A stretch of 62,089 bases of DNA from an uncultured Candidatus Saccharibacteria bacterium (GCA_964622505.1 CAZUQJ010000003.1:1-62089), one strand, 5' to 3'; shown: positions 3,264 through 35,734, numbered from the stretch's first letter. The notes: generated by a model from the sequence alone, not told the origin. Numbers and translations: made by a program.

Positions 3264-4181
3264 CTAACTTCTGTCTAAAAATGACCAGTTCATCGCTTCG
3301 GGAGTCAGGAATGCTGAAAGGATAGTGTTGATTATGAGCCATGCTGCCAATGCTATGATGTAGCCTACGAGCACATTTTTAATCATGGCTTTTGCATGAG
3401 TTTTTCCATGTTCATTGCCACCGGATGTGATGAGTGTAAATCCTGCGTAGGCAAAGATAATAGCAGCCAGTGGTGTAGCAAAGTAGACAAGCAAGAAATT
3501 GATCACATTGTTGACGAGCTTCATGAGCATTTCGAAATTACAAGGAGTGCTGAAGCGTAGATAGTAGCCTTCGGTCACTGTCTCACCTGTCTTGTTGCAA
3601 TCGGGTACTATCCCACCTTCGTATCCCCCTGTCTTTAGACCACCACCACTTGAGCTTGCACCACCCGATACGCCAGGATTGGGTATAATGTGAGCTATAA
3701 CCTGATTGTTGATCACATCTACAGATCCGATATACTTGTCCCCAATATAAGAATTAAAAACATTTTCCACAGCATTCTCGATTTTAAAAACGCTGAGTGT
3801 CGCAGGGGTAATACTAGCACGATTGAAAGCGATCTTGCCATTTTGAGCATATACACTACCAGTGATCTTCATACTGCCTGTTGTCGTGCCTATAAATTGA
3901 TATTTTGCATCGTCATAGCCTTCCACCTTGAGCATGTCTACGTCTACGGGCGATGCTGAACCTTCTATCCCTTTGTCTAAAGAAAATGTAAGTCGAGCAT
4001 TTTGAGCCTTGAAGCCGGCTATCTGGTCAAGCTCTTTTTGGAATCGTGTACTTGCAGTGCTCGGCACGATCGTAATAGCATTTGGATTGTTGACAAGTAC
4101 CGTTCCAGCAAGTACCACAGCCGGTGCCACAAAAATAATGGAGAAGTTTATAAGTAATAAAAAAGTAAATAATTTTTTCAT
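3264..4181 (-). CDS. secreted protein with C-terminal pilin-like two-helix module, paralog 1
   Basis: Start taken at MKKLFTFLL (ATG 4181), which gives a signal peptide and avoids overlap with the upstream stop at 4183. About 200-aa extracellular part, Gly/Ser linker, then AAIIFAYAGFTLITSGGNEHGKTHAKAMIKNVLVGYIIALAAW. Confidence 0.55.
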   Translation of the reverse strand: MKKLFTFLLLINFSIIFVAPAVVLAGTVLVNNPNAITIVPSTASTRFQKELDQIAGFKAQNARLTFSLDKGIEGSASPVDVDMLKVEGYDDAKYQFIGTTTGSMKITGSVYAQNGKIAFNRASITPATLSVFKIENAVENVFNSYIGDKYIGSVDVINNQVIAHIIPNPGVSGGASSSGGGLKTGGYEGGIVPDCNKTGETVTEGYYLRFSTPCNFEMLMKLVNNVINFLLVYFATPLAAIIFAYAGFTLITSGGNEHGKTHAKAMIKNVLVGYIIALAAWLIINTILSAFLTPEAMNWSFLDRS

Positions 4182-9975: not shown

Positions 9976-10004
9976 TTGCAATATATACATATATATAGTA
10001 TATT
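9976..10004 (+). promoter_or_regulatory. candidate sigma70-type promoter of rpsA
   Basis: TTGCAA, 17-nt spacer, TATATT; the AT-rich context allows alternatives. Confidence 0.4.
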
Positions 10005-10130
10005 TGTGGAGTAAATTTATTAGCCCATTTGGGAATTAACCCTGTGAGAGGTAAAACTTGAACAGAAACCCAAGTGTCCCGCTATATGAGCGGTTTTTTT
10101 ACGCCCCAGGCGTTAAAATACAGAATATTT

Positions 10131-11267
10131 ATGAAAAAAACAGACGACAAAAACGAATTGGCAGATAGCGCAAGTGCTATCGCCGAGAGCGCAAAAATCG
10201 AGCTTTCAAGCATCGGCAAGATGCTAGAGAAGTCAGACCTTCCCCCACAAGTGGAGGCTCTTGTTGAAGGTGAAGTTATCGCCATCGAGAAGTCAGCAGT
10301 GTATATAAACCTTGCTCCATTTGGAACAGGTATTATTTACGGACGCGAATTTATTAATGCAAAAGACATCATCCGCAAGATCAACATAGGTGATGTAGTG
10401 AAGGCAAAGGTAGTCAGCGCAGAAAATGAAAACGGCTATGTAGAGCTCTCTCTTAAAGAAGCAAAGCAGGCACTGATCTGGAGCGAAGCCGAGAAAGCGA
10501 TCAAGTCAAAGACTTTGATCGAAATCACAGTCAAGGAAGCCAACAAAGGCGGACTTATCCTCGAATGGCAAGGTATCTCTGGATTCCTTCCAGCAAGTCA
10601 GCTCAAGAGCGAGCACTACCCACGTGTAGAAGATTCCGATAAAGACAAGATCTTGAAAGAGTTAAAGAAATTGATCGGCAAGCGCATCAATGTGATCATG
10701 ATCTCAGCGTTGCCAAAAGAAGGCAAGCTTATCTTCTCTGAAAAAGACAACAACCCAGAAGAGCGCAAAGAAATCATTGGCAAATACGCTGTCGGCGACG
10801 AGCTAGCATGTACTATTGCAGGAATCGTAGACTTTGGAATCTTCCTTAAGGTCGAAGACGGTCTCGAAGGACTTGTCCACATCTCCGAAATCGATTGGGG
10901 CTTGGTAGAAGACCCACGAAGCATGTTCAAAGTTGGCGATCCTATCCGCGCAAAGATCATCGAAATCAAAGACGGCAAGATCTCCCTTTCTATCAAAGCT
11001 CTCAAAGACAATCCATGGAAAGAATTTGAAGAGAAGTTGAAAAAGGGCGACATTATTTCTGGAGTAGTAATCAAATTCAACAAACACGGCGCATTGGTGT
11101 CTATCAAGCAAGGTGTAGCAGGATTGGTCCACAACTCAAGCTTCGGTTCTGAAGAGAAATTGAGAAAGACTTTGGAAATGGGCAAAACATACGACTTCCA
11201 AGTTACACTCTTTGAACCAAAAGACCAAAGAATGACCCTAGTCTACCTAGACAAAGAAAATAAATAG
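10131..11267 (+). CDS. rpsA: 30S ribosomal protein S1 (four S1 domains)
   Basis: Repeated S1 motifs (G.V..V....G..V.L..G..G..H.SE); ATG at 10131 preferred over the GTG at 10074, which lies in a leader hairpin. Confidence 0.9.
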   Translation: MKKTDDKNELADSASAIAESAKIELSSIGKMLEKSDLPPQVEALVEGEVIAIEKSAVYINLAPFGTGIIYGREFINAKDIIRKINIGDVVKAKVVSAENENGYVELSLKEAKQALIWSEAEKAIKSKTLIEITVKEANKGGLILEWQGISGFLPASQLKSEHYPRVEDSDKDKILKELKKLIGKRINVIMISALPKEGKLIFSEKDNNPEERKEIIGKYAVGDELACTIAGIVDFGIFLKVEDGLEGLVHISEIDWGLVEDPRSMFKVGDPIRAKIIEIKDGKISLSIKALKDNPWKEFEEKLKKGDIISGVVIKFNKHGALVSIKQGVAGLVHNSSFGSEEKLRKTLEMGKTYDFQVTLFEPKDQRMTLVYLDKENK

Positions 11268-11274
11268 TTCACAT

Positions 11275-11304
11275 AAAAAAGGCCTTCAATTGAAGGCCTT
11301 TTTT
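11275..11304. terminator. bidirectional intrinsic terminator
   Basis: AAAAAAGGCCTTCAATTGAAGGCCTTTTTT. Confidence 0.8.
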
Positions 11305-11316
11305 AATTTAGCTAAA

Positions 11317-11931
11317 TTAATTTGAAAGTGGTTTAATTATCTGCTCTTCAAATTCCTGAACAGTACCACGAAATTTCCACTCATCATTAGTATTACGATT
11401 ACAAACAATTTCCACCATGTCGTTTTCAGTAGGATCAGCAGGTTTACTTTTCTTATAACCCCACTGTGTGTCCCATACTTTTTCATGGCCTTCATTACTA
11501 CTCCTCATCAAGACAAGCAAAGGATCCTTTTGATCAAAGTATTGTTGCAGTCCTGAAATCACTGCTCGTAGCTTACCAAGACGTTTAGAATTTTCATGTT
11601 TCGGATTATCTAAATCGGTAAATGGTATGAGAGTGCCATCCTCAAGCTGAGCACCAATAATTCTGGCCAACCAACATCCATCGGATAAAGGAAATTGAAT
11701 GGATAGAACTTCTCCTGGTGTATCAGGAGAGAAACTCATATTTGAAAAAAATGTTTTTTCAAATATGGAAAGTGCTTCTTTTGCCTGGTCAGTTTTATAA
11801 GGCCAGAATGAAATTTCATACTGAACAGGAAATTCTCTTTCTTTAGCGGTTACCCACTCTGCTACCTTTTTAGGAACTTTTTTCGAATTCGGGTCTGTAT
11901 TAAACAGATGATGTAAATTTAATGTTATCAT
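11317..11931 (-). CDS. hypothetical protein
   Basis: 204-aa ORF, no recognised family. Confidence 0.5.
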   Translation of the reverse strand: MITLNLHHLFNTDPNSKKVPKKVAEWVTAKEREFPVQYEISFWPYKTDQAKEALSIFEKTFFSNMSFSPDTPGEVLSIQFPLSDGCWLARIIGAQLEDGTLIPFTDLDNPKHENSKRLGKLRAVISGLQQYFDQKDPLLVLMRSSNEGHEKVWDTQWGYKKSKPADPTENDMVEIVCNRNTNDEWKFRGTVQEFEEQIIKPLSN

Positions 11932-18705: not shown

Positions 18706-19575
18706 ATGAATAAACTCAGACATATTCTCTCAGGAATCTTACTCACTCTATATCTTGCTGCTTTGATGTACGCAATGCTCAACAATGCGACAATTACAGC
18801 CCTCTACAACCTGCCACTTATGACAATACCGATCCTTGGACTTATCAGTGTGATTATTTTAGGCTATTACTACACACATTTATTCCTTAAAATAGAGAAA
18901 CTGGAATTTGAATTCACTTCTATCGTCAATCACGCATTTCGTACACCACTCACTCGTATTATGTGGCTTACAAAAGAATTAGAAAAAGAAATCCCTCGAG
19001 AACAGCGACTACTGTTCTTGCAAAATGTAGAGAACACCGCAAGCCGAGTGATCGGAATCGTCGATTTGATCGCAGGTATGAAAGAAGCGAGCAATGCATT
19101 TGGATACATCTTTCAAGCTGTATCTATACGTGAGATTGTAGAGAAGTCTATCGAGAAGCACCGCGAAGCCATCAAGCAAAAAAATCTAGCTTTCCAAGTC
19201 TCTACATTTAAAGACATTCCCCTTTTGACCGTTGATATCAAAAAGATATCTTTTGTGTTTGATGTCCTTATCGAAAATGCAGTTTTCTATACTCCAAAGG
19301 ATGGCCACATCAGCATCGACTGTATACCAAAATCAAATAAAATAATCTTCTTTGTCAGCGATTCTGGTCTCGGGCTCACATTTATGGAGAAATTTAGAGT
19401 ATTCTCCAAGTTTTATCGTTCCGAAAAAGCGCGGTTGATGAACACCGACGGTATGGGACTCGGACTCTATCTTGCAAAAATCATTATCGAGCGCCACAAA
19501 GGACGGATCTATGTAGAGTCCAGAGGCCGAGACAAAGGCTCCAAGTTCTACGTTGAGCTCCCTTTTGGTAGATAA
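18706..19575 (+). CDS. sensor histidine kinase, orphan
   Basis: Two TM helices, H-box NHAFRTPLT, N-box ENAVFYTP, G-boxes DSGLGL and GMGLGLYLAK; no response regulator nearby. Confidence 0.88.
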   Translation: MNKLRHILSGILLTLYLAALMYAMLNNATITALYNLPLMTIPILGLISVIILGYYYTHLFLKIEKLEFEFTSIVNHAFRTPLTRIMWLTKELEKEIPREQRLLFLQNVENTASRVIGIVDLIAGMKEASNAFGYIFQAVSIREIVEKSIEKHREAIKQKNLAFQVSTFKDIPLLTVDIKKISFVFDVLIENAVFYTPKDGHISIDCIPKSNKIIFFVSDSGLGLTFMEKFRVFSKFYRSEKARLMNTDGMGLGLYLAKIIIERHKGRIYVESRGRDKGSKFYVELPFGR

Positions 19576-19576
19576 G

Positions 19577-20731
19577 CTATTTGCAGACTTTCATTATTTT
19601 TTTATAATACTCTATATAGTGCTCTACAATTTTTGTACCCGAGAACCCTGACAGGGCTCGAACTTTTGCCTGCTCTCCAAGCTCGAGTACCAATGCTTTA
19701 TTGAAAGAGAGCTCTTTGAGCTTTTTTGCAAATGCATCAACCTTACCTACAGGAAAAAGGAATCCTGTAATGCCTGATTGCATAAACTCGCCAATACCAC
19801 CAGCATTTGTCGCTAATACCGGCTTGCCATAACTCATAGTCTCGAGTATTCCCATCCCGAAACTCTCTTCTCCAGAAGTGTATATTCCAATATCACTTGC
19901 ATTTATATAGTTCTCGACATCAAGTACATTTTTCTTTATGGTTACTTGCTTTTCTATCCCCAACTTTTTTATCAATGGCAAATACTCGTCCGAGTTACCA
20001 CCAGCTAGAATCAAAAGTTTTATCTTTTTGTTATTTTTTACCTTTGACATCATTGCCAAAAGATCTGGTATCCTCTTAACTGGTCTCATGTTTGAAAGGT
20101 GGATAGCAAGAAAATCATCTTGCTCAATTCCAATCATTTTGCGAATTAACTGTGGGGATTTTTTTATCTTTTTAGGATTGTAAAAATTATGAATTACACT
20201 AATATCCTTTTTTGTGTTTAGAACCTTGACTGTATCCCCCTTCAAGCTTTCCGAAACTGCCGTAACTCCACAAGAACTTTCGATAGAATATTTTATAACC
20301 GGCATCAAGCTTTTATCACGAGCAAGAAGTGTGATATCTGTACCATGCAATGTAGTTACGACATTTGGAAAATGTATTTTTTGGGTCTCGGAAATATCTT
20401 TTGCAAGTAATGCAGCAGTCGCATGAGGGACGGCATAATGCACGTGTAAAATATCTAATTTATACTTAGTATTTACATCTACAATCTTTACAGCCAATGG
20501 CAATGTGTAATCTGGGTATTTAAAAAGCTCATAGCTGTTGAATACTACTTTGTGAAAGAATATATTCTTTTGGTCTGTATCGAGTGCAAAAGGAGGATCG
20601 TAACTAATAAAGTGGACCTTGTGCCCAAGCCGTGCCAATTCACTCCCAAGCCCTGTGGCGACAATTCCACTACCACCCACGCTCGGATAGCATACAATAC
20701 CAATTTTTAATATTTTATTTTTTTTAGCCAT
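19577..20731 (-). CDS. bshA: N-acetyl-alpha-D-glucosaminyl L-malate synthase (GT4)
   Basis: KIGIVCYPSVGGSGIVATGLG and TTLHGTDIT match the BshA N-terminus and core as I recall them from Bacillus BshA. Confidence 0.8.
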   Translation of the reverse strand: MAKKNKILKIGIVCYPSVGGSGIVATGLGSELARLGHKVHFISYDPPFALDTDQKNIFFHKVVFNSYELFKYPDYTLPLAVKIVDVNTKYKLDILHVHYAVPHATAALLAKDISETQKIHFPNVVTTLHGTDITLLARDKSLMPVIKYSIESSCGVTAVSESLKGDTVKVLNTKKDISVIHNFYNPKKIKKSPQLIRKMIGIEQDDFLAIHLSNMRPVKRIPDLLAMMSKVKNNKKIKLLILAGGNSDEYLPLIKKLGIEKQVTIKKNVLDVENYINASDIGIYTSGEESFGMGILETMSYGKPVLATNAGGIGEFMQSGITGFLFPVGKVDAFAKKLKELSFNKALVLELGEQAKVRALSGFSGTKIVEHYIEYYKKIMKVCK

Positions 20732-24915: not shown

Positions 24916-26574
24916 CTATAATCTAGTATTCCCCGGTAGCTCAGCGGCAGAGCAGAGAACTGTTAATTCTAAGGTCGTAGGTTCGATCCCTACCCGGGGA
25001 GCCAGATAAGATGATGGTATACCATTTTCACTACTTAAGCCTTTTGCGATAAAGGTTTTTTGTAGTTCGTAGGCTTCATTTAACTTAGGAATCCATTCAA
25101 GCAAATAATTACACGCTAAATTATAGTTTGGCTTTATTTCATAAACGTTTTGTGTAAAGTTCGTAAACAATTGAGAGAATAATAATCGTTTCTCGTCTAC
25201 TGTTGCTTTTTCGTAAATTTCTTTTGCTTTAAAAGCAAGGTCATGCATAACTAAACGAAGTTCTTGATACTCATCACTTTGAGAAGCAATTTTTTCAAGA
25301 GCAGATTCTAAAATACTTTCCTCTGTTTTACATTCAGCTATTTTTCTTTCGCAATATTCAAGGTCTACCTCTCTATTTATCTTTGCCTCAAAGTACTTAT
25401 CTTTTTGTTTTCGTATTCCCTGAAGTAAGCCGTTGAGCCTTTGGACTTCAATTTCTCTTAATTTAACTTGACCAGCATTTTCTTCTAGAATTATACTTTC
25501 AATCCATTTAAGTACAGCTTCGTTTTTAGGAGCTATTTTACCAAAGATGCTAGCTATCTGCTTTTCCGCTTCTTCTTGCTTAATATAGGTCTTTTTGGAG
25601 CAATAACGAGATTTTAAATGATTATTACAATGTCCATAGATAGTTCCTTTCTGTAATTCCCAACTTAATACACCACCACAACCATCACAGAAGATTTTAC
25701 TTTGAAAAAGATAATTATGCTTAGTAGAAAGAGAAGTTTTACCTCGTCTTCTTAATACACTGTTTACTTTTTCAAATAAATCTTTAGAAATTATAGGTTC
25801 ATGTTTGGCTGGATATATTTCACCACTCCATCTCATTTTTCCACAATAGAATGGGTCTAAAAGTAGTTCATATATTCTACCTTGATAAATCTTGCCTCCA
25901 TTTCTTGTACGAAGTCCGAGTTTATTCATTTCATCTTCTAATCCAATGACGGAATAGTTTCCTGTCGCATAGAGTTCAAACATTTTTTTTAAAAGCGGGG
26001 CAGTTTCATTATCAATGACATGTATTTTATGACCCTTTTCTCCGATAGTTTTATATCCAAGGGGTGGTTTTGTAGGCAACCATCCTTGAGCGATTTTTTC
26101 CTTTTGCCCTTTTTTAACTTCCTCGGATAAGTTGGAAATATATTTCTTTGCAAGAACAATTTCAATATCCCAACGAAATTTTTCATCAGATTTAGCATTC
26201 TTATGTATCACGAGGTTCTGTTTTACAAAATGGATTTGTCTTTCATCGTTAGCTTCAATCCAATCATTTGCTACCACAGCTTCTTTAAGGTTTCTGGTAA
26301 GGCGGTCCACTTTCTCACACAATAGTATTTGGATATTTTTCTTCCTCATATATTCCATCATTTCAGCAAAGGTTTTTCTTTGTTTTGCTCCACTAGCAGA
26401 TTCAGCTACTGAAAATACTTTTATTACAGTAAGACTTTTTCTTTGAGCATATTCCATAAGAAGCTTTTCTTGTGCTGGCAATGAATAGCCTGTATCTTCT
26501 TGTTCTTTAGAAGATACTCGACAATAAATTACAGCCTCATTTTTTATGTTTTTAATTTTTTCTTGTTTTTTCAT
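24916..26574 (-). CDS. large serine recombinase (integrase)
   Basis: AVIYCRVSSKEQ catalytic Ser region, recombinase domain, Cys-rich zinc ribbon (CDGCGG...HCNNH...C), coiled coil; the last ~30 codons are antisense to tRNA-Asn. Confidence 0.88.
   Translation of the reverse strand: MKKQEKIKNIKNEAVIYCRVSSKEQEDTGYSLPAQEKLLMEYAQRKSLTVIKVFSVAESASGAKQRKTFAEMMEYMRKKNIQILLCEKVDRLTRNLKEAVVANDWIEANDERQIHFVKQNLVIHKNAKSDEKFRWDIEIVLAKKYISNLSEEVKKGQKEKIAQGWLPTKPPLGYKTIGEKGHKIHVIDNETAPLLKKMFELYATGNYSVIGLEDEMNKLGLRTRNGGKIYQGRIYELLLDPFYCGKMRWSGEIYPAKHEPIISKDLFEKVNSVLRRRGKTSLSTKHNYLFQSKIFCDGCGGVLSWELQKGTIYGHCNNHLKSRYCSKKTYIKQEEAEKQIASIFGKIAPKNEAVLKWIESIILEENAGQVKLREIEVQRLNGLLQGIRKQKDKYFEAKINREVDLEYCERKIAECKTEESILESALEKIASQSDEYQELRLVMHDLAFKAKEIYEKATVDEKRLLFSQLFTNFTQNVYEIKPNYNLACNYLLEWIPKLNEAYELQKTFIAKGLSSENGIPSSYLAPRVGIEPTTLELTVLCSAAELPGNTRL
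24930..25004 (+). tRNA. tRNA-Asn(GTT) with encoded CCA
   Basis: TCCCCGG/CCGGGGA acceptor, GCTC/GAGC D-stem, anticodon loop CTGTTAA, T-arm GTAGG-TTCGATC-CCTAC, GCCA end; TATAAT at 24915..24920. Confidence 0.93.
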
Positions 26575-26846
26575 TTAATTAGATTTTTATTTATAAACTC
26601 ATTAAAACTTTCTTCATCTATCCTATATTCCTTGCCAAACTTATATGCTTTAATTTTTTTTGCTCTTATATAACGATATATTGTTATTATGTTTAACTTA
26701 AGTTTTTCAGCCAATTCTTCAGCTGTGTAAAAATTTCCAGTCGCTCTTTTTAATGCGTTTATTGTTATTGCCCCATAGTCAGTCTTACTTCTTTTTATGT
26801 TTGGGTTGCTAACAAAATTAAATAGGTTTGTTTTTTTACTTCTCAT
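26571..26846 (-). CDS. excisionase-family helix-turn-helix DNA-binding protein
   Basis: YTAEELAEKLKLNIITIYRYIRAKKIKAYKFGKEYRI; stop overlaps the recombinase start (ATGA). Confidence 0.7.
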   Translation of the reverse strand: MRSKKTNLFNFVSNPNIKRSKTDYGAITINALKRATGNFYTAEELAEKLKLNIITIYRYIRAKKIKAYKFGKEYRIDEESFNEFINKNLIK

Positions 26847-26897
26847 ATATTAATAATACCATACTGGACTTTTCTATACAAACAAATTTATCAACTT

Positions 26898-27086
26898 TTA
26901 CCACTCTATTGTTTTTAAGTTCTCACTGTCTTTTTTGATACGTTGATAGACCTTAAAGAGGTGTAAATAATAATTAGCGACCCCATTAGCAATTTCCTTA
27001 AGCTGGTCTTCCGAATAATCCTCAAAATTAGCTAGGTCTTTTTGGAGTTCAATAAATTCTTTTATCTGTTCTGGTTTGAGTTCCAT
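26898..27086 (-). CDS. hypothetical small protein
   Basis: 62-aa ORF in the same operon. Confidence 0.4.
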   Translation of the reverse strand: MELKPEQIKEFIELQKDLANFEDYSEDQLKEIANGVANYYLHLFKVYQRIKKDSENLKTIEW

Positions 27087-27090
27087 CTTT

Positions 27091-28452
27091 TTAAAACCCT
27101 AGCTCTTCAGCCGTTGGTGGCTCTATAATGTTCACGACGTTCACATCATTCACTTCTTCACCTTTAATATCCGCATCCGTGATGCCGTATCGTTCTTTCC
27201 AAAAATCCAGTCGTTCTCTGTTCCTTGCTAATTCAAGCACATACCCTCGTCTTGTTTTATAGGGTTTAAGTTGTAATTTTGATCTAAGATACCAGCCGAT
27301 TTTTCTTGGCGTTAGTTTTTCCTCAAAATCAAATAAATCTTGATTCACATATTCTGATATTTCACCAACTGTGATTTCTTTATTGCCTTTATCGTGTTCA
27401 AACTTAAAAATTGCAAAGATAATATCTGATTCTCTTGAAAGCCCTCTGTCTGCAATAAGCTCGGTGTTGTATTTTTGCACGAACTCTTTCAAAGACTGCT
27501 TCATTTCCTTAGATTCAATTATGGTCATAAGGGGAATTACAATCTGATGCAGTCGTGGGTGAATATCCTCAATAAGTGTCTCGTCGAAAACAAGTTCCTT
27601 TTGATAGTTTCTAAAACGCCACATAAGAAGTTTATTTCGGAGTATCAAGGCTTCTCCCCAAAACTCATCACTTAATCTTCTAGGAATATCCTCTCGTAGC
27701 TTTCCACGCCCCATTTCTTCCACCAAGAAACGGCTCTCAAGTGCTTTGTCGCTGAATGTCTCTCTGGTGGCTACTATCTTGGGAGAAAATACATCAAATG
27801 CTCGCATCTCCATTAAATCTTTTCCTTGCATTCTTAAAACAGACCCACCTTTTTGGTAGCCCATATTCAGTATTTTTATTATGTCCTGTGTCATATCACT
27901 GAAACGCAAATCCGCCTCATCAAGTATTAGAGTGCCTCTTACTTCGTCTAGAATGCGGAATATAGGGGCTGTGGTAGTTGCTCCGCCTGTGAATATAGGA
28001 CGATAGCATATAGAACCAATTACCTGTAAAAACCTGCTCTTACCGCTTCCAAAATCTCCTATAGCTCTTAAGTACGGTACTTCGCTGAAACGGTCATATA
28101 CCCAACTAAAAAGGGCGTAATATGAGGCAATCTGCTCAAACATAGGTGATATGTCTAAGTAGTGATGTATGAACTTTCTAATCTCTTCTAGAAGCTCTTC
28201 TTCTGTTACGTATTCAAGTGGCTCAGATGGTAGTAAAACTATCCCTTTACTTACAACATCACTTCTAGCATCAAGTGGAAATATTTCTTGTTCTCCTTGT
28301 TTTACTTTGTCTAGAAATTGAATTTCTCCATTTTTATATACTACAAATTGCGTCTGCTGTTTATTTTTATCGTAAACTGTTTCGGCAAGTTTATTATCTG
28401 ATACAAGGGATGCTTTTCTATTTTTCTTTACATTTTTATCTTCATTTTTCAT
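27091..28452 (-). CDS. P-loop NTPase, possibly replication or primase-associated
   Basis: Walker A GDFGSGKS and Walker B LILDEADL. Confidence 0.55.
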   Translation of the reverse strand: MKNEDKNVKKNRKASLVSDNKLAETVYDKNKQQTQFVVYKNGEIQFLDKVKQGEQEIFPLDARSDVVSKGIVLLPSEPLEYVTEEELLEEIRKFIHHYLDISPMFEQIASYYALFSWVYDRFSEVPYLRAIGDFGSGKSRFLQVIGSICYRPIFTGGATTTAPIFRILDEVRGTLILDEADLRFSDMTQDIIKILNMGYQKGGSVLRMQGKDLMEMRAFDVFSPKIVATRETFSDKALESRFLVEEMGRGKLREDIPRRLSDEFWGEALILRNKLLMWRFRNYQKELVFDETLIEDIHPRLHQIVIPLMTIIESKEMKQSLKEFVQKYNTELIADRGLSRESDIIFAIFKFEHDKGNKEITVGEISEYVNQDLFDFEEKLTPRKIGWYLRSKLQLKPYKTRRGYVLELARNRERLDFWKERYGITDADIKGEEVNDVNVVNIIEPPTAEELGF

Positions 28453-28479
28453 ATTTTTATTTCTATTTAATCTAATAAT

Positions 28480-28758
28480 TTAAAACTTCCTATTAAACCC
28501 GTTATCTTTCAGAAAAGACAATAACTGTCGGCGAGCTTCCTCGTATACATGCACTTGTACTAGCAAGTCTGGGTCATCCTTGTCGCCAAATTTATATTTT
28601 TCTTCAAGTTCTTCCAGTCTGGGGCTTTGGATAAACACGAACTCTTTAATTCCATTTCCTAATGAGTTTACATTCGCCAGCTTTTGACCTTTAGCGTATA
28701 GAAAGTTGCATTTCTGAAAATCGCTATCTCTAAAATACCTTTCATTTTTTATTTTCAT
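28480..28758 (-). CDS. hypothetical protein (DUF5659-like by recollection)
   Basis: 92 aa; the FRDSDFQKCNFLYAKGQKL...FVF pattern resembles small proteins common in CPR mobile elements. Confidence 0.4.
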   Translation of the reverse strand: MKIKNERYFRDSDFQKCNFLYAKGQKLANVNSLGNGIKEFVFIQSPRLEELEEKYKFGDKDDPDLLVQVHVYEEARRQLLSFLKDNGFNRKF

Positions 28759-28912
28759 CTTATTTCTTTATTACTATTAATTTTGTAGCTACATGACTGA
28801 GAATAGCCGAATAAAATAGTTAAAAATAGTTCAGCCTTAGTAGGAGTAAAATGAAAAAGACCCCTATTAAATAAGGGTGCTTTTGGGCTAGTTAACAAGA
28901 AGTTAAACTTAA

Positions 28913-29692
28913 CTAAACAAAAATGGGTTCAAAAAAATCCCTGTTGATTTCGTAGCCAGAATTATTATCATTTTTTATGACATCATAAACTAACTCTAAA
29001 TCAACCGTTAGTCTTTTATTAATTTTACCAATTTCTGTGCTCAAGTTTTGAGCACTTGTATTACTTAATTTTGAGCCACTAATTTTTTTACCTTGTGCAA
29101 GTTTTACTATATATTCAAAACGCTTATTTTTACCATTACCACCCCTAAAGGCACAACTCAAAGTTTTATTATTACAGTTTTTTATAATTTTTTTATCTTT
29201 CTTATCTATTTTTAAAATAATTTTACTACTAGTACTAAATTGGCTTTCTTTTTTAAAATTTTCCGTTGTTTTACTAGACTGAGTATTTTCACTATCAAAA
29301 AGGATTCCAATCTTCTTTAATGTGGTTGGGTTATTCACCGACAGCAACAAATTATTAGTGTGAAATTCATAATCATGGTCATCCTTATTTGTATACTTAT
29401 TCGTAGAAGTAATAAAATCTATTTTAGAAAATTCACGTAATTTGCTAACTAATATTTCAGCTTCTGTTAAACTAAAACAAGAACACTCTTGCTCAAGCAA
29501 CTTGAGGGGTACAGAGAAAACATAGCTAAGCGAAGAGGTGGATTCACCCCTCCCTACATGTAATTCCTCTCTACTGAGTATAATGTCTACAAATCTCTTA
29601 AGCTTGTTACGACTTTCCTCGGATAAAGACTTTATTTTTTCAACCTGAATCTCAGCATAAGATTCAGGGGTATTTTTTATCTTAATCTTCAT
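28913..29692 (-). CDS. hypothetical protein, possible C-terminal winged-helix
   Basis: 259 aa; C-terminal ...GKINKRL...NNSGYEI resembles the end of an OmpR-type wHTH; weak. Confidence 0.4.
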   Translation of the reverse strand: MKIKIKNTPESYAEIQVEKIKSLSEESRNKLKRFVDIILSREELHVGRGESTSSLSYVFSVPLKLLEQECSCFSLTEAEILVSKLREFSKIDFITSTNKYTNKDDHDYEFHTNNLLLSVNNPTTLKKIGILFDSENTQSSKTTENFKKESQFSTSSKIILKIDKKDKKIIKNCNNKTLSCAFRGGNGKNKRFEYIVKLAQGKKISGSKLSNTSAQNLSTEIGKINKRLTVDLELVYDVIKNDNNSGYEINRDFFEPIFV

Positions 29693-29834
29693 TTATATAT
29701 TCATTGTTAAATATGCACATTGTGAATGTTGTGAACATTGTACTAGCACATTTTACCATTTTATGGCATACTTTTAAAGTCAATTAAATACGAGACCTAA
29801 CCCTTAAATTTTAATATTTAAGGTATGGTCAAAT

Positions 29835-29936
29835 CCAGCTAAGGTGTTAAAAACCCATCATTGGGGTTACCTTAGCTGGTCATACAGGGAAACTTGTATT
29901 GGATGGCGAAAGCTGTCACCTAGTGGTGGGCTTTTT
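29835..29936 (+). ncRNA. candidate structured RNA (unknown class)
   Basis: 11-bp perfect stem CCAGCTAAGGT/ACCTTAGCTGG enclosing AACCC/GGGTT, then two GAAA-tetraloop hairpins (ATACAGG-GAAA-CTTGTAT; GATGGC-GAAA-GCTGTC with G-U pairs), then CACC-TAGT-GGTG and a T-run. Confidence 0.4.
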
Positions 29937-29957
29937 GCTACTAATTATCATACTAAG

Positions 29958-30578
29958 ATGAAAATAAATATGAAAAAATATCTAGCAGTTTTATTTCTAA
30001 TAGCATTTATTGTTCCCTCAGTTGCGTCTGCTTCTTGGTGGAATCCTTTTGGTTGGTCAAAGAATTCTAAAGAAAACATAAATGTTATCGAACCAACACT
30101 AGTTAAACAAACTGAGAAGTCTGATTCTAAGGTTGAAACCAAACCTAAAGAAGTCAAAGAAACTAAAGTTATTGAGAGAATAGTAGAAAAACCCGTCATC
30201 CAAAAAATAACTGTACAGGACCCAACACTTCAAGCTAAAATTGATTCTTTAATTTTAGAAAATAGTAATCTTAAAGCGGAGATAGAAAGGTTGAAAAAAG
30301 CAAACGAATCATTAAGTGCTGAGCCAAAATCAACAGTGCTTTCTAAATTTGCTTCGAAATGTTTAAACGTAAAAGAAGACATATTAGATTACAAAGAACA
30401 GATCGAAGAGATAGACGATAAGTATAATAATATTTACGAAGAAGATATGAATAGAAATCCAAAAAGAAATCCCGATACATATAGAAAAGTAGTTGATGGC
30501 AGGAAACAAAAAGAACTATCATCTCTTAAGTCTATTTTAAGTGGTGCCTTAGCTGATAAGGAATTATATTGCGATTAA
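29958..30578 (+). CDS. secreted coiled-coil protein
   Basis: ATG at 29958 gives the signal peptide MKINMKKYLAVLFLIAFIVPSVASA; the GTG extension from 29844 would translate the RNA structure. Confidence 0.55.
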   Translation: MKINMKKYLAVLFLIAFIVPSVASASWWNPFGWSKNSKENINVIEPTLVKQTEKSDSKVETKPKEVKETKVIERIVEKPVIQKITVQDPTLQAKIDSLILENSNLKAEIERLKKANESLSAEPKSTVLSKFASKCLNVKEDILDYKEQIEEIDDKYNNIYEEDMNRNPKRNPDTYRKVVDGRKQKELSSLKSILSGALADKELYCD

Positions 30579-30584
30579 AAATAT

Positions 30585-31118
30585 ATGGAAAATAAAAATT
30601 TTTGGTGGTATCGTCTAGCAATAATTATTTATATAATAATATATATTGTACTATTTTTAGCTGTAACTCTTGGTATTTTTTATGAAACTAAACCCTATGT
30701 GATATATAATATAAATAAAGAAAAATCGTATATTCAATGTAAAGTCGATGATTCTACCTTTGCGTTTAATCTAAATCCACAATTAACTATTATTTCATAT
30801 TTCGAAAAGCCAACGCTCGACAGTTATTCTGTTGATTGGGCAACTAAAGTTTGCTTGGAGCGTACTGTAACAAAATCAAATATACAGGAAGACCTTGAGT
30901 CATATAGATTATCTAAACAAACAAGAAATTTTACTGAGTATATTGAAGTCACAGAAGAAACACACGGTAGTTGGAAAGAAAACATAGTCTACACCCTAGT
31001 TTCAATGTTAGGCGTTTATTTTCTAATGTATATAATTTTTTCAATTTTTAATTGGATAGCATTTGGTGAAAGTTTTAAAAAACCTAAGTTACTTAAGATG
31101 TGGCAAGAAGAAGATTAA
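30585..31118 (+). CDS. hypothetical membrane protein (2 TM)
   Basis: 177 aa with N- and C-terminal TM helices. Confidence 0.5.
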   Translation: MENKNFWWYRLAIIIYIIIYIVLFLAVTLGIFYETKPYVIYNINKEKSYIQCKVDDSTFAFNLNPQLTIISYFEKPTLDSYSVDWATKVCLERTVTKSNIQEDLESYRLSKQTRNFTEYIEVTEETHGSWKENIVYTLVSMLGVYFLMYIIFSIFNWIAFGESFKKPKLLKMWQEED

Positions 31119-31191
31119 GGTTTTGTAAGCAGAAAACCCTATAAATCTTGTCATTTTTAACAAAAAGTTACTTTAGGTTGGCAATTTGTAC

Positions 31192-31197
31192 TATACT
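31192..31197 (+). promoter_or_regulatory. -10 box 6 nt upstream of the ATG (leaderless geometry)
   Basis: TATACT-tgaaag-ATG. Confidence 0.45.
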
Positions 31198-31203
31198 TGA
31201 AAG

Positions 31204-32802
31204 ATGTTTAAGAATGACAAAGGAGAAATAGTACTTCATTTAGATATGCGACTTGGACAAATTACTGGTGGTGAGCCAGTAGTGACGGAAGAACAACTAA
31301 AACAAGCCTTTAAAGCTTATAATTTAAAAGAGGCACTTCTAACTTTAGCTGAGTTGTCAAAGAACATTTTTAATGGAAACATTCCTCAACCATTTACAAT
31401 GATTGGTAAAACTAGCGTACAACACCCTGCTGGAACGTTCATTTCACAATTTACTATTGAGTATTTAGCAAATATTTTTCTTATATCTGGAGCTAATGAT
31501 TATAAAAGTGAGAGCATTAAAAGCAAAGATAATCTTCTGGGTCTTTTCAATATTTACAATAATTCTGTGATACATCAAGGTCTCATCGATGGTCAGTTGT
31601 CATCTTTATTAGTTCCTATGTATTTCGAACAAATCAAAGGTCAAGCTAGTGTTCAAGACCTTTTAGTTAGACAATGGATGATTTTTAGTGAGGTCAGAAA
31701 GCAAATAGGTAATGGAGATTTTGAAGACATTGATAGTACTATTTTACAGAGTACAAATCTTTGTGTCGAAGAAATCATAGGACTTTCCTTTACTATTTTT
31801 TCTTACCTTATACATAATCCGTTATTTAATATTGGCAATCTAGATGGACACAAAATTGAAAGCTTTAAAAATCTTGTAACAACAGAAAAGGTTAATCATT
31901 TTTTAAATTTATACTCGGCAACATATTCAGAGATTCGTGAATTAGACCAGAAATTAAATCCAAAAGATACAAAAGAGTACACAAAAACAAGATTCAATCC
32001 TCTCTGGAAAAAACCAATTCTACGTTTGGAAACAAATTTATTTCTTGCTCCTAGCTTAACTGCTTACACAACAGCGAGCTTTTATGGATTATTTTGGTGG
32101 TTTGATGATTATTATAGAAACCAATCCAAAAAAAGACAGATGGACTTTAGGAAGTATTTTGGTCTTCTTTTTGAGAACTACACTGGAGAGGTTCTTAAAG
32201 ATATATATGGAGAAGCCTCAGTAAGAAGACAAGTTAAATATGGTCCTTCAGGAAAAGAAATTGATTTTATTGATTGGACTGTTATACAAGAGAATAAAGT
32301 TTATCTATTTGAAGTTAAAGCTTATCAATTTCCCCTAGAGACACTTCAAAAAGGAAAGCCTGATGATGTTAGAAAAGAGGTAGTCAATAAAATTGTTGAA
32401 TCTATAAGGCAAATTTACCAAAGAACACTGGATATAGATATTTATGACGAACTCTCTGAATTTAGAGCTAAGAACATAATACCCATCGTAGTTTTTTATG
32501 ACATCCCTTTTGCATCTTCATCTATGTATAAAGACAATATCAGTAAAGCTCTTACTGATTTAAACCCCAAATACTCTGGAATTAAAGATTTTAGATATTA
32601 CTTAATCGGCATTAGTGAATTAGAAGACTTTTATTATTGCTCTGACAACATAGTAATAGAAGATATTTTTGAAACTATAAAAGATAATCCAGCGACAGGA
32701 TTTAACTCAGAAGTTTCTAATAACTTCAAGGACAAGACCAGAAAGAATTTTCTTGATAGAAATTTTGACAGGTATCTAGACAACTTAGTGCCTGAATTAT
32801 AA
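31204..32802 (+). CDS. predicted PD-(D/E)xK-fold nuclease with large unknown N-terminal domain
   Basis: 532 aa; C-terminal GKEIDFIDWTVIQENKVYLFEVKAYQF fits a D...ExK restriction-endonuclease-like core. Confidence 0.5.
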   Translation: MFKNDKGEIVLHLDMRLGQITGGEPVVTEEQLKQAFKAYNLKEALLTLAELSKNIFNGNIPQPFTMIGKTSVQHPAGTFISQFTIEYLANIFLISGANDYKSESIKSKDNLLGLFNIYNNSVIHQGLIDGQLSSLLVPMYFEQIKGQASVQDLLVRQWMIFSEVRKQIGNGDFEDIDSTILQSTNLCVEEIIGLSFTIFSYLIHNPLFNIGNLDGHKIESFKNLVTTEKVNHFLNLYSATYSEIRELDQKLNPKDTKEYTKTRFNPLWKKPILRLETNLFLAPSLTAYTTASFYGLFWWFDDYYRNQSKKRQMDFRKYFGLLFENYTGEVLKDIYGEASVRRQVKYGPSGKEIDFIDWTVIQENKVYLFEVKAYQFPLETLQKGKPDDVRKEVVNKIVESIRQIYQRTLDIDIYDELSEFRAKNIIPIVVFYDIPFASSSMYKDNISKALTDLNPKYSGIKDFRYYLIGISELEDFYYCSDNIVIEDIFETIKDNPATGFNSEVSNNFKDKTRKNFLDRNFDRYLDNLVPEL

Positions 32803-33837
32803 TGATTCCAATTTATTTAAAATTGCTCCCTTTGCTAACTTTTTCAAGAAATACCAAGTAGGTATCAGGAAAAAATATGTGTCTTTGAATTTTAAGCCTT
32901 CAGCACCAATAATGTCGTGTATATCAATTTCATCATCCTTTTGCCATCCTGTTTTCGGCCTATTAAATCGAGCAAAAGACATTCCCAGAACGGGACTTAT
33001 ATAGGCTGTACCAGAATCATCTTCTACTCCATAACTATCTTTAACTACACTAGGAAAAGGAAATCCCTGATGAACAAATTTACTTCTATATTGATAAGCA
33101 CTGAAAAAACAAGAGAAAACTAGTTTGTCTGCTTCATTAAACGCAGACATCTCCTTTGCACATCTCCAGCGTTCTTTATTGGCTTTAGTTAAACAAGAAT
33201 CAAATAAAGTCACTCCTTTTTCTAGCCTCTCTCTATAAACTTCCATTGCTTTTAACTTGTCATATACTACCTTATTTAGTTTTGGAGAAATTTTACTTGC
33301 AAATGTAGCAAAATCCCAGCTACCCTCTGCTCCACTAAGTGCATCAATAATTCTCATTAGGCTTAGGTAACTGTCAGCATAGAAATTAGGATATAAAAGA
33401 CGAGCATTGTTATACTCACTAATCAAATATTGAATTCTCATAGCTTCTACTTCTTTTTGCTTATTTCCTGACTGAAAATTTGAATCAATAGTAGTACCTA
33501 TCTTTTCAAATAGCTCTAGATTAAAGTCGGACTGAGAAACCTTCCTAATGGACTGAGCGGGTATCATTTTTGTGCCGAAATAAAAGCCATGTCCTACGGT
33601 TAAGCGTTTCTTTTTCTGTATACCAATATCTAGAACAAATCCAAGTGTAGATTCAGGGTCAAAGAACCCTGTTGGAGTATCTTTTTCTTGGTCAATACGT
33701 CCATATTTAGCATATTCAGCTAAAATTACAAGCCCATCATCTGACCTCATCATTTTTAACTGCCCAAACTTTTGGCTTAGGGCAATATGTCCATCAATAT
33801 TAAAATCAGTCAGTTCCCAAGATTCTAATTCATCCAT
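32797..33837 (-). CDS. HEPN-domain protein, ApeA-like architecture
   Basis: 346 aa; beta-rich N-terminal part, helical C-terminal part with Rx4H motif YRSKFVHQG. Confidence 0.5.
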   Translation of the reverse strand: MDELESWELTDFNIDGHIALSQKFGQLKMMRSDDGLVILAEYAKYGRIDQEKDTPTGFFDPESTLGFVLDIGIQKKKRLTVGHGFYFGTKMIPAQSIRKVSQSDFNLELFEKIGTTIDSNFQSGNKQKEVEAMRIQYLISEYNNARLLYPNFYADSYLSLMRIIDALSGAEGSWDFATFASKISPKLNKVVYDKLKAMEVYRERLEKGVTLFDSCLTKANKERWRCAKEMSAFNEADKLVFSCFFSAYQYRSKFVHQGFPFPSVVKDSYGVEDDSGTAYISPVLGMSFARFNRPKTGWQKDDEIDIHDIIGAEGLKFKDTYFFLIPTWYFLKKLAKGAILNKLESL

Positions 33838-33843
33838 TTTTTA

Positions 33844-33852
33844 ATTATAGCA
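33844..33852 (-). promoter_or_regulatory. extended -10 promoter, leaderless geometry
   Basis: Minus strand reads TGCTATAAT-taaaaa-ATG. Confidence 0.55.
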
Positions 33853-33929
33853 CCCCTTGACACCTAATGCATGTATACTATTTTGAGGTATTTGTACAAT
33901 TTATAAAAAGGTCTATTATATAGGTATAT

Positions 33930-34598
33930 ATGAAAATTAAAGAAAAACTAAACAAAATAAAGTCCTATATCTCAAATACTAAATTTGGGGTTTTCCTTGT
34001 GGTAGTTTTAATCATCCTGAGCGCACTTTTTTTGTTATCTGAAAATAGAGATGGAGAATGTTCTAAGGAGTATAAAATACAAAGAAAATATTTAAGTAGA
34101 GACACATCTTCTGTGGGGTTTACCTTTAATAGGTATGAAACCGCTAATTCAAGTCCTGAAATATTAAAAAATTTAGACTTAAATTCTAGTAAAACAGCAA
34201 AAGAATTTAGGTCTAGTATAGATTCTCAACTTAAAGATAAAGTTGATTTTGATGGCAAATATACCGTAGTGGGTGTCGGCATGACGGGCTGGGATGGACC
34301 TGTGTGGATAGTAGACAGATTGGACGGCAAGGCTTATGAATTTCCATATCACCACTATTATTTTTCTTTAGCTTACTCCAAGGATAGCAATTTGATTGTT
34401 GTAAATTCTAAAGATAAAATAAAAGAAATGCATAAAATCCATGGTTGTTCTTATCTTAATATTACGGGAGATGGGATTAGTGGAGCTTATGATTTGAGAC
34501 CTCACTATTTTCTATGGGAAGATGGTCAGTTTAAATATTTAGGACCCGATAATTATATTCCTAGTAAAAATACTTTTTGGGAAGGTTATTTTAAATAA
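33930..34598 (+). CDS. hypothetical membrane-anchored protein
   Basis: 222 aa with an N-terminal TM helix. Confidence 0.5.
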   Translation: MKIKEKLNKIKSYISNTKFGVFLVVVLIILSALFLLSENRDGECSKEYKIQRKYLSRDTSSVGFTFNRYETANSSPEILKNLDLNSSKTAKEFRSSIDSQLKDKVDFDGKYTVVGVGMTGWDGPVWIVDRLDGKAYEFPYHHYYFSLAYSKDSNLIVVNSKDKIKEMHKIHGCSYLNITGDGISGAYDLRPHYFLWEDGQFKYLGPDNYIPSKNTFWEGYFK

Positions 34599-34671
34599 TA
34601 ATCAAAATTAAATATTTTTTATGATTTCAAAATAGTACAAAAAGACCAAAAGAAAACGAACTACCTTTCGC

Positions 34672-35085
34672 CTATTCCAAATCCCTATTTAATATCTGTT
34701 CTTTTAAGTTCTGATCATAGTTCTTAATGTTTTGTTGGAACTTTGGCTCAAAGAAGAAGTTATAGACGTTTTCTTTAGGTTTTTCTATATCTTCATTTTT
34801 ATAATGCCCCTTTAGTTTAAGCCCTGTTTCAAGGTATTTGTGTCTTACTGCATAATCTGGCTCTATTCCTTCTTCCGTTTTCTTTCCTGCTTCTAGTCCC
34901 TCATCAAGCACTTTAGCCAACTTATCGTCAGAAATAAACTTCTCCATCAATTCTTTCCACCCATTACTTTGAGTTAACTTTTCTGTTTTCTGTGGGTTAG
35001 CATAAATACCCTCCATAGCTTTACTTATAACTCCCCCCGTTTCCCCCAATCTTTCAAACACTTTTTTCTGTTTTATGGTAGGCAT
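34672..35085 (-). CDS. hypothetical protein (faint terminase-small-subunit-like N-terminus)
   Basis: 137 aa; KQKKVFERLGETGGVISKAM and DYAVRHKYLETGLKLKG; weak. Confidence 0.4.
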   Translation of the reverse strand: MPTIKQKKVFERLGETGGVISKAMEGIYANPQKTEKLTQSNGWKELMEKFISDDKLAKVLDEGLEAGKKTEEGIEPDYAVRHKYLETGLKLKGHYKNEDIEKPKENVYNFFFEPKFQQNIKNYDQNLKEQILNRDLE

Positions 35086-35190
35086 AGTAATTTAAGTAAT
35101 AGCTAATAATTGCCGTATCTGCATTAAAGAAACCGAAGGATAAGGAAATACCTCTTCCCAATTTGTGTTCGTAAGTTGTAGTTTCCAGCG

Positions 35191-35234
35191 AGCATAATAA
35201 AAAAGCACCAGTAATGGTGCTTTTTTATTATGCT
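35191..35234. repeat. perfect 20-bp-stem hairpin (bidirectional terminator-like insulator)
   Basis: AGCATAATAAAAAAGCACCA-GTAA-TGGTGCTTTTTTATTATGCT. Confidence 0.8.
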
Positions 35235-35274
35235 CCCCGGAGCAAGCAAACTGCTTTGCTTGCATGTAGGGAGC
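35232..35274. repeat. nested imperfect palindrome, possible recombinase site
   Basis: GCTCCC-cgga-GCAAGCAAA-ctgc-TTTGCTTGC-atgta-GGGAGC. Confidence 0.5.
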
Positions 35275-35367
35275 GAAAAGCTTTTCTGTATTTTTGAAAA
35301 TCTTTGATTTTTAAAAATTAGAAAAGGTATACTGTTCCTGTAAGGAAAGATACCCTACCCACGGAGC

Positions 35368-35396
35368 TTGACGTTTAACACTATTTATGCTATTAT
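35368..35396 (+). promoter_or_regulatory. promoter, copy 1 of a duplicated promoter-leader module
   Basis: TTGACG, 17 nt, TATTAT; about 65 nt similar to 36253..36321. Confidence 0.55.
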
Positions 35397-35734
35397 ATAA
35401 AGATAGTAGTTCTTTAATATTTGGTTATCTTGTTTTGTATATTGCTCTCTGGACATCAATTATTGGTTTCTATAGAGCAATAATACAAAACAATTTTAAA
35501 ATCATAAAAATGGAACAGCAAGAAAAAAGCCCAAGGGCACAACTCCACACTCTCGTTGGTAAGGAGATGAGATTCGAAAAACGCGCAGATATGAATGGAG
35601 GTACTGTGCCTCATCACGTGGAAGAGCATAAACAAGCTCAGAAGGAACTTGAAGAGTTTCTTCTCAAAAATCCATCAATGAGGGAGCATTTGGAAACGGT
35701 TCAAGACCATTTCTTTAAACAGTTGTATGAATAA
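35387..35734 (+). CDS. hypothetical protein (start uncertain; alternative ATG at 35510)
   Basis: The longest ORF starts inside the predicted promoter; if the promoter is real the product is the 74-aa MEQQEKSPR... form. Confidence 0.45.
   Translation: MLLYKDSSSLIFGYLVLYIALWTSIIGFYRAIIQNNFKIIKMEQQEKSPRAQLHTLVGKEMRFEKRADMNGGTVPHHVEEHKQAQKELEEFLLKNPSMREHLETVQDHFFKQLYE

Follow-up and report, generated by a model that had tools for sequence, protein, structure and literature searches.

A 62,089-nucleotide (nt) stretch of DNA from an uncultured Candidatus Saccharibacteria bacterium (GCA_964622505.1, CAZUQJ010000003.1:1-62089), hereafter the window, carries an integrative element at the 3' end of a transfer RNA gene for asparagine (tRNA-Asn), the sole tRNA that ARAGORN called in it. 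Here, we describe the integrase gene of this element, the open reading frame (ORF) of which crosses the edge of the element and runs antisense through the tRNA gene, and a short piece of coding sequence at the far edge of the element that appears to be the displaced 3' end of the same gene. The G+C content is approximately 0.31 in the element versus 0.39 in the flanks, with the dip spanning positions 25,000-35,500. To the left lie host genes for a DUF167 protein and an ABC exporter, and to the right those for a K+ channel, purA and guaB, and in between the element includes the integrase gene, an overlapping HTH_17 excisionase-like gene and genes for proteins without Pfam matches. The features at the two ends are:

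24930-25004, plus strand: tRNA-Asn(GTT), intact (ARAGORN and sequence).
24916-26574, minus strand: integrated-form integrase ORF, 552 residues (ORF list, Pfam).
26571-26846, minus strand: HTH_17, excisionase-like ORF (Pfam), overlapping the integrase start (ATGA).
25003-35193: integrative element, 10,191 bp (G+C, gene content and mapping of the cores).
24999-25002: core GAGC of the left attachment site (attL), comprising the last acceptor bases, the discriminator and the next base.
35190-35193: core GAGC of the right attachment site (attR), exactly where the homology between elements ends.
35193 to 35092, minus strand: detached integrase 3' piece, A-RWKLQLTNTNWEEVFPYPSVSLMQIRQLLAIT-stop (six-frame search and tail hidden Markov model, HMM).

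The integrase and its tRNA-antisense end

The ORF encodes a large serine recombinase with a catalytic domain, a Recombinase domain and a zinc ribbon with an inserted coiled coil. Matches were obtained to the Pfam families Resolvase (PF00239, E = 1.8e-20, residues 14-164) and Recombinase (PF07508, E = 4.2e-17), while Zn_ribbon_recom (PF13408) scored 24.7 bits, slightly below its cut-off of 25.3, and S15 is invariant across an alignment of 78 sequences. A profile of the family matched the A118 integrase (4kis) over positions 180-478, the homology stopping before the tail discussed below is reached, at approximately position 478 in an alignment model of 521 positions; a phmmer search of the PDB sequences with one family member returned no match, and only the profile search gave one. 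For a relative with a circular form (P0078), the AlphaFold2 model had a mean pLDDT (predicted local distance difference test) of 84.7, with long helices at residues 348-452, a low-confidence linker at 501-530 and a confident last helix at 539-550, and Foldseek matched this model to the SPbeta integrase (E = 2e-17) and also to those of Bxb1, phiC31 and A118. No relative was found in IMG/VR, and none of the RNA runs searched contains the gene. The overlapping HTH_17 ORF is a candidate directionality factor.

The 552-residue ORF ends in ...SSYLAPRVGIEPTTLELTVLCSAAELPGNTRL (ORF list). Its residues 1-525 come from the element and residues 526-552 are antisense to the tRNA and its promoter, with the stop (CTA on the plus strand, 24916-24918) overlapping the TATAAT at 24917-24922, 7 nt 5' of the tRNA. 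An earlier model-made reading of this DNA, from its letters only (the sequence-only reading), had reported a recombinase ORF running antisense through the whole tRNA-Asn to a stop at the TATAAT box, on which ARAGORN and the ORF list agree; it had also taken the last residues for an antisense translation of the tRNA, which holds for 25 of the 27 codons that follow the recombination core.

Only one of the three antisense frames of the tRNA-Asn is open, the other two meeting a TAG in the T-stem or a later TGA. In relatives, the TAG of the antisense T-stem (GGTAGGG) is in frame and the protein ends in ...LLGR; relatives with a phase other than that of the window stop after 2-18 codons. The phase of the window is shifted by one base versus that of the relatives and falls in the sole frame that is open across the whole tRNA; the full read-through is thus a one-in-three accident of reading phase, and the 27 extra residues are accidental. 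Among relatives, the host-encoded end of the integrase is unconserved and varies in length between 2 and more than 25 residues. What is systematic, unlike the full read-through, is that the integrase gene overlaps a convergent tRNA at its 3' end.

A detached and conserved tail

At the far edge of the low-G+C island, the six-frame search identified the tail ...ARWKLQLTNTNWEEVFPYPSVSLMQIRQLLAIT with its stop on the integrase strand (tail HMM, E = 7.8e-12). This piece is in phase with integrase codon 525, and a join at GAGC gives a protein of 557 residues with a 32-residue tail (...W..vFPyPSVSL.QI..LL). The recombination core maps within the integrase ORF, to codon 525 of 557, and in the 552-residue form the stop follows 84 nt downstream. 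The sequence-only reading was thus right to place the attachment junction within or next to the 3' end of the integrase ORF, as comparison of the two ends and of relatives now indicates. It was likewise borne out in expecting the integrated and excised forms to differ at the C-terminus, which is a tRNA-antisense end in the 552-residue form versus a conserved tail in the 557-residue form.

The C-termini of homologues form several classes. The majority end in ...LLRG or ...LLGR at approximately 521-527 residues, some extend into peptides such as DSNLRP or GSNLRP, which correspond to the antisense of the T-arm, and a class of approximately 550-556 residues has the conserved end ...LLAW.D.LRT..W..vFPfPSVSL.QI..LL. 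The distal 19 codons of the tail, which lie outside an approximately 25-bp attachment arm, were compared in 20 distinct DNA versions; differences at the three codon positions were 0.34/0.20/0.57, with pN 0.25, pS 0.84 and pN/pS approximately 0.30. The 32-residue tail thus appears to be translated and is under purifying selection, so that in evolutionary terms it is not dispensable, as the sequence-only reading had it; the variable and unselected part is the tRNA-antisense tail.

In one relative (locus L001), no start codon lies between the upstream stop and the tail (by eye), in another (L004) a TTG within the junction identity is the sole start available, and in the window an in-frame ATG is found 27 codons upstream, across two hairpins. 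With starts absent or remote, the tail piece is most simply part of the joined gene. Further, the core of the window falls at codon position 1 (position 3 in relatives) and its spacer from core to TGG is 1 nt shorter, and these two one-base changes, 10 kb apart, cancel in the joined gene only.

Joined forms and split forms among relatives

The integrase has more than 2,000 homologues, mainly in metagenome-assembled genomes of Nomurabacteria/Paceibacteria type. For comparison, 72 related loci (L numbers) were retrieved, and the 48 with an intact integrase 3' end form our survey of tRNA overlap. In 28 of the 48, the gene adjoins a tRNA called by ARAGORN, mostly Asn and also Tyr, Lys-CTT, Leu-GAG and Gln; seven run into tRNA-Asn-like antisense sequence missed by ARAGORN (six breaking at the anticodon loop and one cut by the contig end), nine have a contiguous tail, and four are fused to degenerate tails. 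In L025 (3679-3973), a group I intron (Rfam RF00028, 64.8 bits) splits the anticodon loop of the tRNA-Asn beside the integrase, and ARAGORN therefore misses this tRNA. In L007, L028, L029, L034 and L035, the tRNA-Asn breaks off at the same point of the anticodon loop, just downstream of the integrase stop (by eye).

Nine integrated loci from the first survey (the window, L001, L004, L005, L006, L008, L009, L012 and L017) carry a far-end tail piece, which lies 6-9 kb upstream of the integrase and on the same strand as it, and a metagenome scan added four more (L028, L033, L040 and L046). Homology between elements begins exactly at GCTCGCTTGGA..., and the DNA upstream of this point is locus-specific. 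In all eight independent elements with both ends available, the join is in phase and gives the consensus tail (chance approximately (1/3)^8), with join cores GCTC, GCTCG or TTGCTCG at tRNA-Asn, CTTGTGC at tRNA-Tyr and TTGTGCGC at tRNA-Lys.

Joined genes also occur as such. The two ends of the 9,039-nt contig L022 overlap by 55 nt, and contig L023, which comes from a different sample, represents this circle of approximately 8,984 bp in a rotated form; in the circle, the integrase gene is contiguous and encodes 553 residues. Every contiguous form contains the predicted P'-core-P sequence TGCTCGCTTGG...CGAAC. Additionally, in L006 (1804-20323), two different elements lie in tandem at a single tRNA-Asn. 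Integrase A (10001-11662) continues in frame into the tail of element B, and integrase B (from 18728 to 20092 and beyond), 52% identical to the window integrase, adjoins the tRNA-Asn. In L004, L005 and L008, the integrases are fused to tails that stem from decayed neighbours and are degenerate or contain stops. Across these loci, a gene that spans its own phage-type attachment site (attP) is the general design in this candidate phyla radiation family.

The far-end piece could instead be a decaying relic of a longer ancestral gene, with the integrated form as the sole working enzyme and the tail without a role. Such a relic would fit the retention of all catalytic and DNA-binding domains in the integrated forms, as well as the absence of the LRT residues from the window tail, but it is at odds with the purifying selection seen across the 20 tail versions, with the phase kept in eight of eight elements through compensating length changes, with the tail versions that have no adjacent start codon and with the circular forms that encode the tail contiguously. 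We consider it quite improbable.

Candidate attachment-site motifs and tRNA targeting

GAGC is the sole in-register identity between the two ends of the element, and the predicted junctions are ...GTTTCCAGCGAGCCAGATAAGATG... for attP and ...CCCGGGGAGCATAATAAAAAAGC... for the bacterial site (attB). Across the elements, identity shared by attP and attB is only 4-8 bp. The crossover falls at the discriminator and leaves the body of the tRNA untouched; the final two bases of the tRNA-Asn (CA of CCA) are supplied by the element. The tRNA-Asn would be the B' arm of the integration site, and the first approximately 30 nt of the tail piece double as the P arm of attP. Two other candidates were set aside in mapping the core: the palindrome ATGGTATACCAT (25013-25024) with GGTATAC near 35327 was dropped since the tail and the break in homology fix GAGC, and a second GAGC (35240-35243) as the boundary would put the join out of frame and is without support from relatives.

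The motif CGAAC occurs near the core on both sides:

24981-24985, minus strand: CGAAC, antisense to the T-loop and 13 nt away from the core; candidate for the zinc-ribbon-domain motif in an attB-type half-site.
35167-35171, minus strand: CGAAC, 18 nt away from the core; candidate for the zinc-ribbon-domain motif in an attP-type half-site.

Across the elements, the distance between CGAAC and core is 11-13 nt in the tRNA arm and 16-18 nt in the element arm, and the difference is exactly 5 in eight of eight. For a Listeria integrase, Rutherford et al. described a zinc-ribbon-domain motif that lies 5 bp nearer the centre in attB than in attP (PMC3783163). By this rule, the 5-bp shift marks the tRNA side as the predicted attB-type half-site and the tail-coding DNA as the predicted attP-type half-site. 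Since every tRNA has its T-loop at a set distance from its 3' end, changes of the core alone would account for how the elements were retargeted to Tyr, Lys, Leu and Gln tRNAs. The window retains the 18-nt spacing by means of an extra base, giving KLQLTNTN where relatives read K..LRT..., and in this tail the constraint on the DNA outweighs that on the protein.

Putative transcription terminators

Two hairpins on the tRNA strand are relevant to the end of the tRNA transcript:

35190-35235, plus strand: perfect 21-bp hairpin and T-run starting from the core (z -8.7); putative native terminator of the tRNA, displaced by 10.2 kb.
25030-25066, plus strand: hairpin and U-run at integrase codons approximately 503-515 (-17.5 kcal/mol, z -3.5); putative surrogate terminator of the tRNA.

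In eight of 13 loci, the host DNA beyond the far-end core has a strong hairpin and T-run on the tRNA strand, which is best taken as the displaced native terminator of the tRNA. In the window, L004, L017 and L028, these displaced terminators are perfect palindromes of 20-24 bp that start exactly at the core (GAGC...GCTC). When the empty site of the window is rebuilt, the terminator stem reaches into the acceptor strand of the tRNA (CCGGGGAGC.../...GCTCCCCGG).

The hairpin and U-run in the integrase linker recur in six of eight loci, with z of -5.6 in L033, -5.3 in L012, -5.3 in L040, -4.4 in L028 and -3.0 in L009, and are weak in L001 and L046. A simple scan for consensus terminators made no call at 25030-25066. 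We read this hairpin as a predicted surrogate terminator, which would also shield the integrase gene from antisense transcription. The suggestion of the sequence-only reading that convergent transcription with the tRNA may matter thus receives a partial answer, in the form of a plus-strand hairpin and U-run that lies on the tRNA strand within the integrase linker.

Integration model and evidence against it

Based on this evidence, it is very probable that the element was inserted at the tRNA-Asn's 3' end by its own serine recombinase, and that the integrase gene is whole only in the circle. There, attP would lie within the integrase ORF at the codon 525 junction and the gene would carry its conserved tail of 32 residues. 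On integration, crossover within GAGC at the discriminator would keep codons 1-525 beside the tRNA and move the tail piece 10.2 kb away, so that the integrated gene would continue into host DNA, here through the entire antisense tRNA. The native terminator would be displaced and the antisense hairpin and U-run in the integrase linker would take its place. The T-loop of the tRNA (CGAAC on the integrase strand) would act as the zinc-ribbon-domain motif of the attB-type arm, a motif that sits 5 bp farther out in the attP-type arm.

Several observations weigh against this model. The window tail has lost the conserved LRT residues via a local, compensated frame change, and the window copy may be impaired. 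A Bacteroidota-labelled subclade has the intact gene and an attP-like sequence with no tRNA beside it. In the Logan contigs of four wastewater runs, which were searched for joints of the window element, no attP, attB or circular joint was found. One of these runs (X1) contains a unitig corresponding to 34579-35351 that is unbroken across the proposed junction and has the depth of the element, 13.8 versus 22-25 in the flanks of the element. Lastly, positions 35353-35367, approximately 160 bp outside the core, match the tRNA-Asn 3' end at 13 of 15 bases, as would suit a classical direct-repeat boundary.

The unbroken unitig at element depth fits such a boundary, or else any co-occurring element-free strain differs in sequence up to approximately position 35351. 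A contig of depth 7.4 that joins the tRNA up to 25002, ACCGAGCAA and the sequence from 35244 onwards resembles a diverged, element-free relative and is not readable in full. The subclade (L002/L010, L070, L071 and L072) comprises integrases 61-65% identical to that of the window, on contigs of 150-490 kb labelled as or looking like Bacteroidota, with TrwB-like, ArdC and OLD-nuclease neighbours.

The repeat at 35353-35367 belongs to a host-side module:

35232-35367: module of approximately 135 bp outside the element, with a covarying hairpin and, at 35353-35367, a degenerate copy of the tRNA-Asn 3' end.

Modules of approximately 135-165 bp, starting with a partial copy of the tRNA-Asn 3' end, lie between the host flank and the far end of the element in the window (35232-35367), L001 (699-878) and L004 (approximately 3758-3930). 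The hairpin has three compensatory pairs, with GCAAGCAAA/TTTGCTTGC in the window versus GTGAGTAAA/TTTACTCAC in L001, and an Rfam scan of 34900-35500 gave nothing above noise. In L001, a perfect 16-nt copy of the tRNA 3' end stands at the equivalent place. These copies, and a depth step in X1 near 35351-35378, are what would be expected of a classical tRNA island, in which the element would end at the tRNA copy at 35353-35367, crossover would take place in the direct repeat, and the integrase would never be fused to the far-end piece. However, module and tRNA copy are confined to the window, L001 and L004, and six of the nine first-survey loci with a far-end tail piece (L005, L006, L008, L009, L012 and L017) have neither; homology between elements stops at the GCTC core and not at the repeat, and the repeat is without a T-loop motif at the required spacing. 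Further, core joins are in phase in eight of eight elements, the circular contig has exactly the core-fused sequence, and the only recombinase of the element is of the serine and not the tyrosine type. A classical island is therefore, in our view, very improbable, and we retain the model of an integrase gene split at its own attachment core.

Two further observations come from the wastewater data. In runs X3 and X4, samples of another study, an 8,616-nt contig corresponding to window positions 24977-35203 carries an approximately 96% identical integrase module beside the same tRNA, has the same right junction and is without most of 28446-34673, pointing to a different cargo set. The motif AAAGGTATACTGTTCCTGTAAGGAAAGATACCCTACC (window 35320-35358) reaches a summed contig depth of up to 155 in X1, with many differing flanks on both sides, and appears to be a widespread short repeat of the community.

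Possible roles of the tail

Serine integrases are major tools of genome engineering, and the control of their directionality is under active structural study. The sequence-only reading had suggested a built-in switch on integrase stability or directionality. With regard to the present family, we infer that the element reads its own integration state by means of two isoforms, which would have different activity or stability. In the version that we find most likely, the full-length protein would be the integration form, and the tail-less protein would either act with the adjacent HTH_17 protein in excision or have weak activity. It is possible, and we put this forward tentatively, that the tail is a cis-encoded determinant of directionality or activity, with the full-length enzyme performing attP x attB and the tail-less enzyme permitting or limiting attL x attR. 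If so, control would have a further level, either in addition to a separate directionality factor or in its place, and the same 100 bp would at once hold protein code, an attP arm, a mimic of the tRNA T-loop and a tRNA terminator.

Two other roles for the tail have to be considered. In a 'suicidal' lock, the tail would be needed for all catalysis, and a single integrated copy would excise only with a full-length gene supplied by a circle or a tandem neighbour. The tandem array L006 indeed rebuilds a full-length gene, many decayed remnants lie beside elements (L004, L008 and L028), and the concept is published for SSV-type archaeal integrases (PMC8371274); against this, none of the known catalytic or DNA-binding domains is lost through the split, the A118 homology ends upstream of the tail, and an excisionase-like gene is retained beside the integrase, which leaves a lock of this kind rather unlikely. 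Alternatively, the hydrophobic C-terminus (..LLAIT, ..LLAIV) might mark the full-length protein for proteolysis and so limit activity to a brief period after entry. The C-termini are conserved and hydrophobic, and the accessible part of the work on mycobacteriophage BPs describes an integration-dependent system that offers an analogy (PMC4557955), but the high confidence of the last helix (539-550) in the AlphaFold2 model is unlike a disordered degron, and we regard a stability tag as doubtful.

This large natural family of uncultivated candidate phyla radiation bacteria has an enzyme whose C-terminus changes with the state of integration. The family appears to target the universal T-loop and the acceptor end of tRNAs, which would make its attachment sites predictable from sequence. 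For annotation, the 552-residue database 'protein' would be a junction artefact of the integrated state, and the short far-end ORF a piece of the same gene.

Comparison with known systems

The large serine integrases of phages (A118/LI, Bxb1, phiC31 and SPbeta SprA) have the same domain set, the same fold and the same 5-bp logic of attachment motifs as the window integrase. In the phage systems, attP is not known to lie within the integrase ORF, and the known attB sites are located in protein genes or intergenic DNA. According to the 2014 Islander study (PMC4383910), no serine integrase was known to have a tRNA gene as its target; our results indicate that they do use tRNA genes, a case excluded by assumption in this standard island-finding tool.

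A literature search returned no paper with a conserved detached tail, a phase rule, a T-loop motif shift or a surrogate terminator. The nearest description concerns DsiB of the Dehalococcoides ssrA islands (PMC3146451, McMurdie et al. 2011), which, in the accessible part of that paper, is likewise a large serine recombinase encoded beside attL, where a tRNA-like gene (the transfer-messenger RNA gene) has its 3' end. It overlaps with attL, and the authors speculated that the gene is complete on the circle alone and that full function requires the circle or an adjoining island. It differs in its target, ssrA, and in having a second, small recombinase, DsiA. That same part of the paper shows no conserved far-end tail, phase conservation, selection on the tail, 5-bp shift or surrogate terminator.

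Split or altered genes are also known from systems with tyrosine recombinases. In Mx8, attP lies within the integrase's coding sequence, and integration at a tRNA gives the gene a new 3' end and the protein altered properties (IntP/IntX; PMC6070905, cited in PMC4383910). As in the window family, a bacterial integrase gene spans attP and the target is a tRNA, but the Mx8 enzyme is a tyrosine recombinase, unrelated in fold and mechanism. The integrases of SSV-type archaeal viruses and plasmids have the attachment site in the gene, which is partitioned upon integration into tRNA genes (PMC8371274, PMC7253208); these are archaeal tyrosine recombinases whose essential parts are separated, whereas the window family loses only the last 32 of 557 residues. 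In mycobacteriophages BPs and Brujita, according to the accessible part of the source (PMC4557955), attP lies in a coding sequence and integration alters the C-terminus and the stability of the protein, with the difference that the repressor gene is the one split there and that a tyrosine recombinase serves as the integrase.

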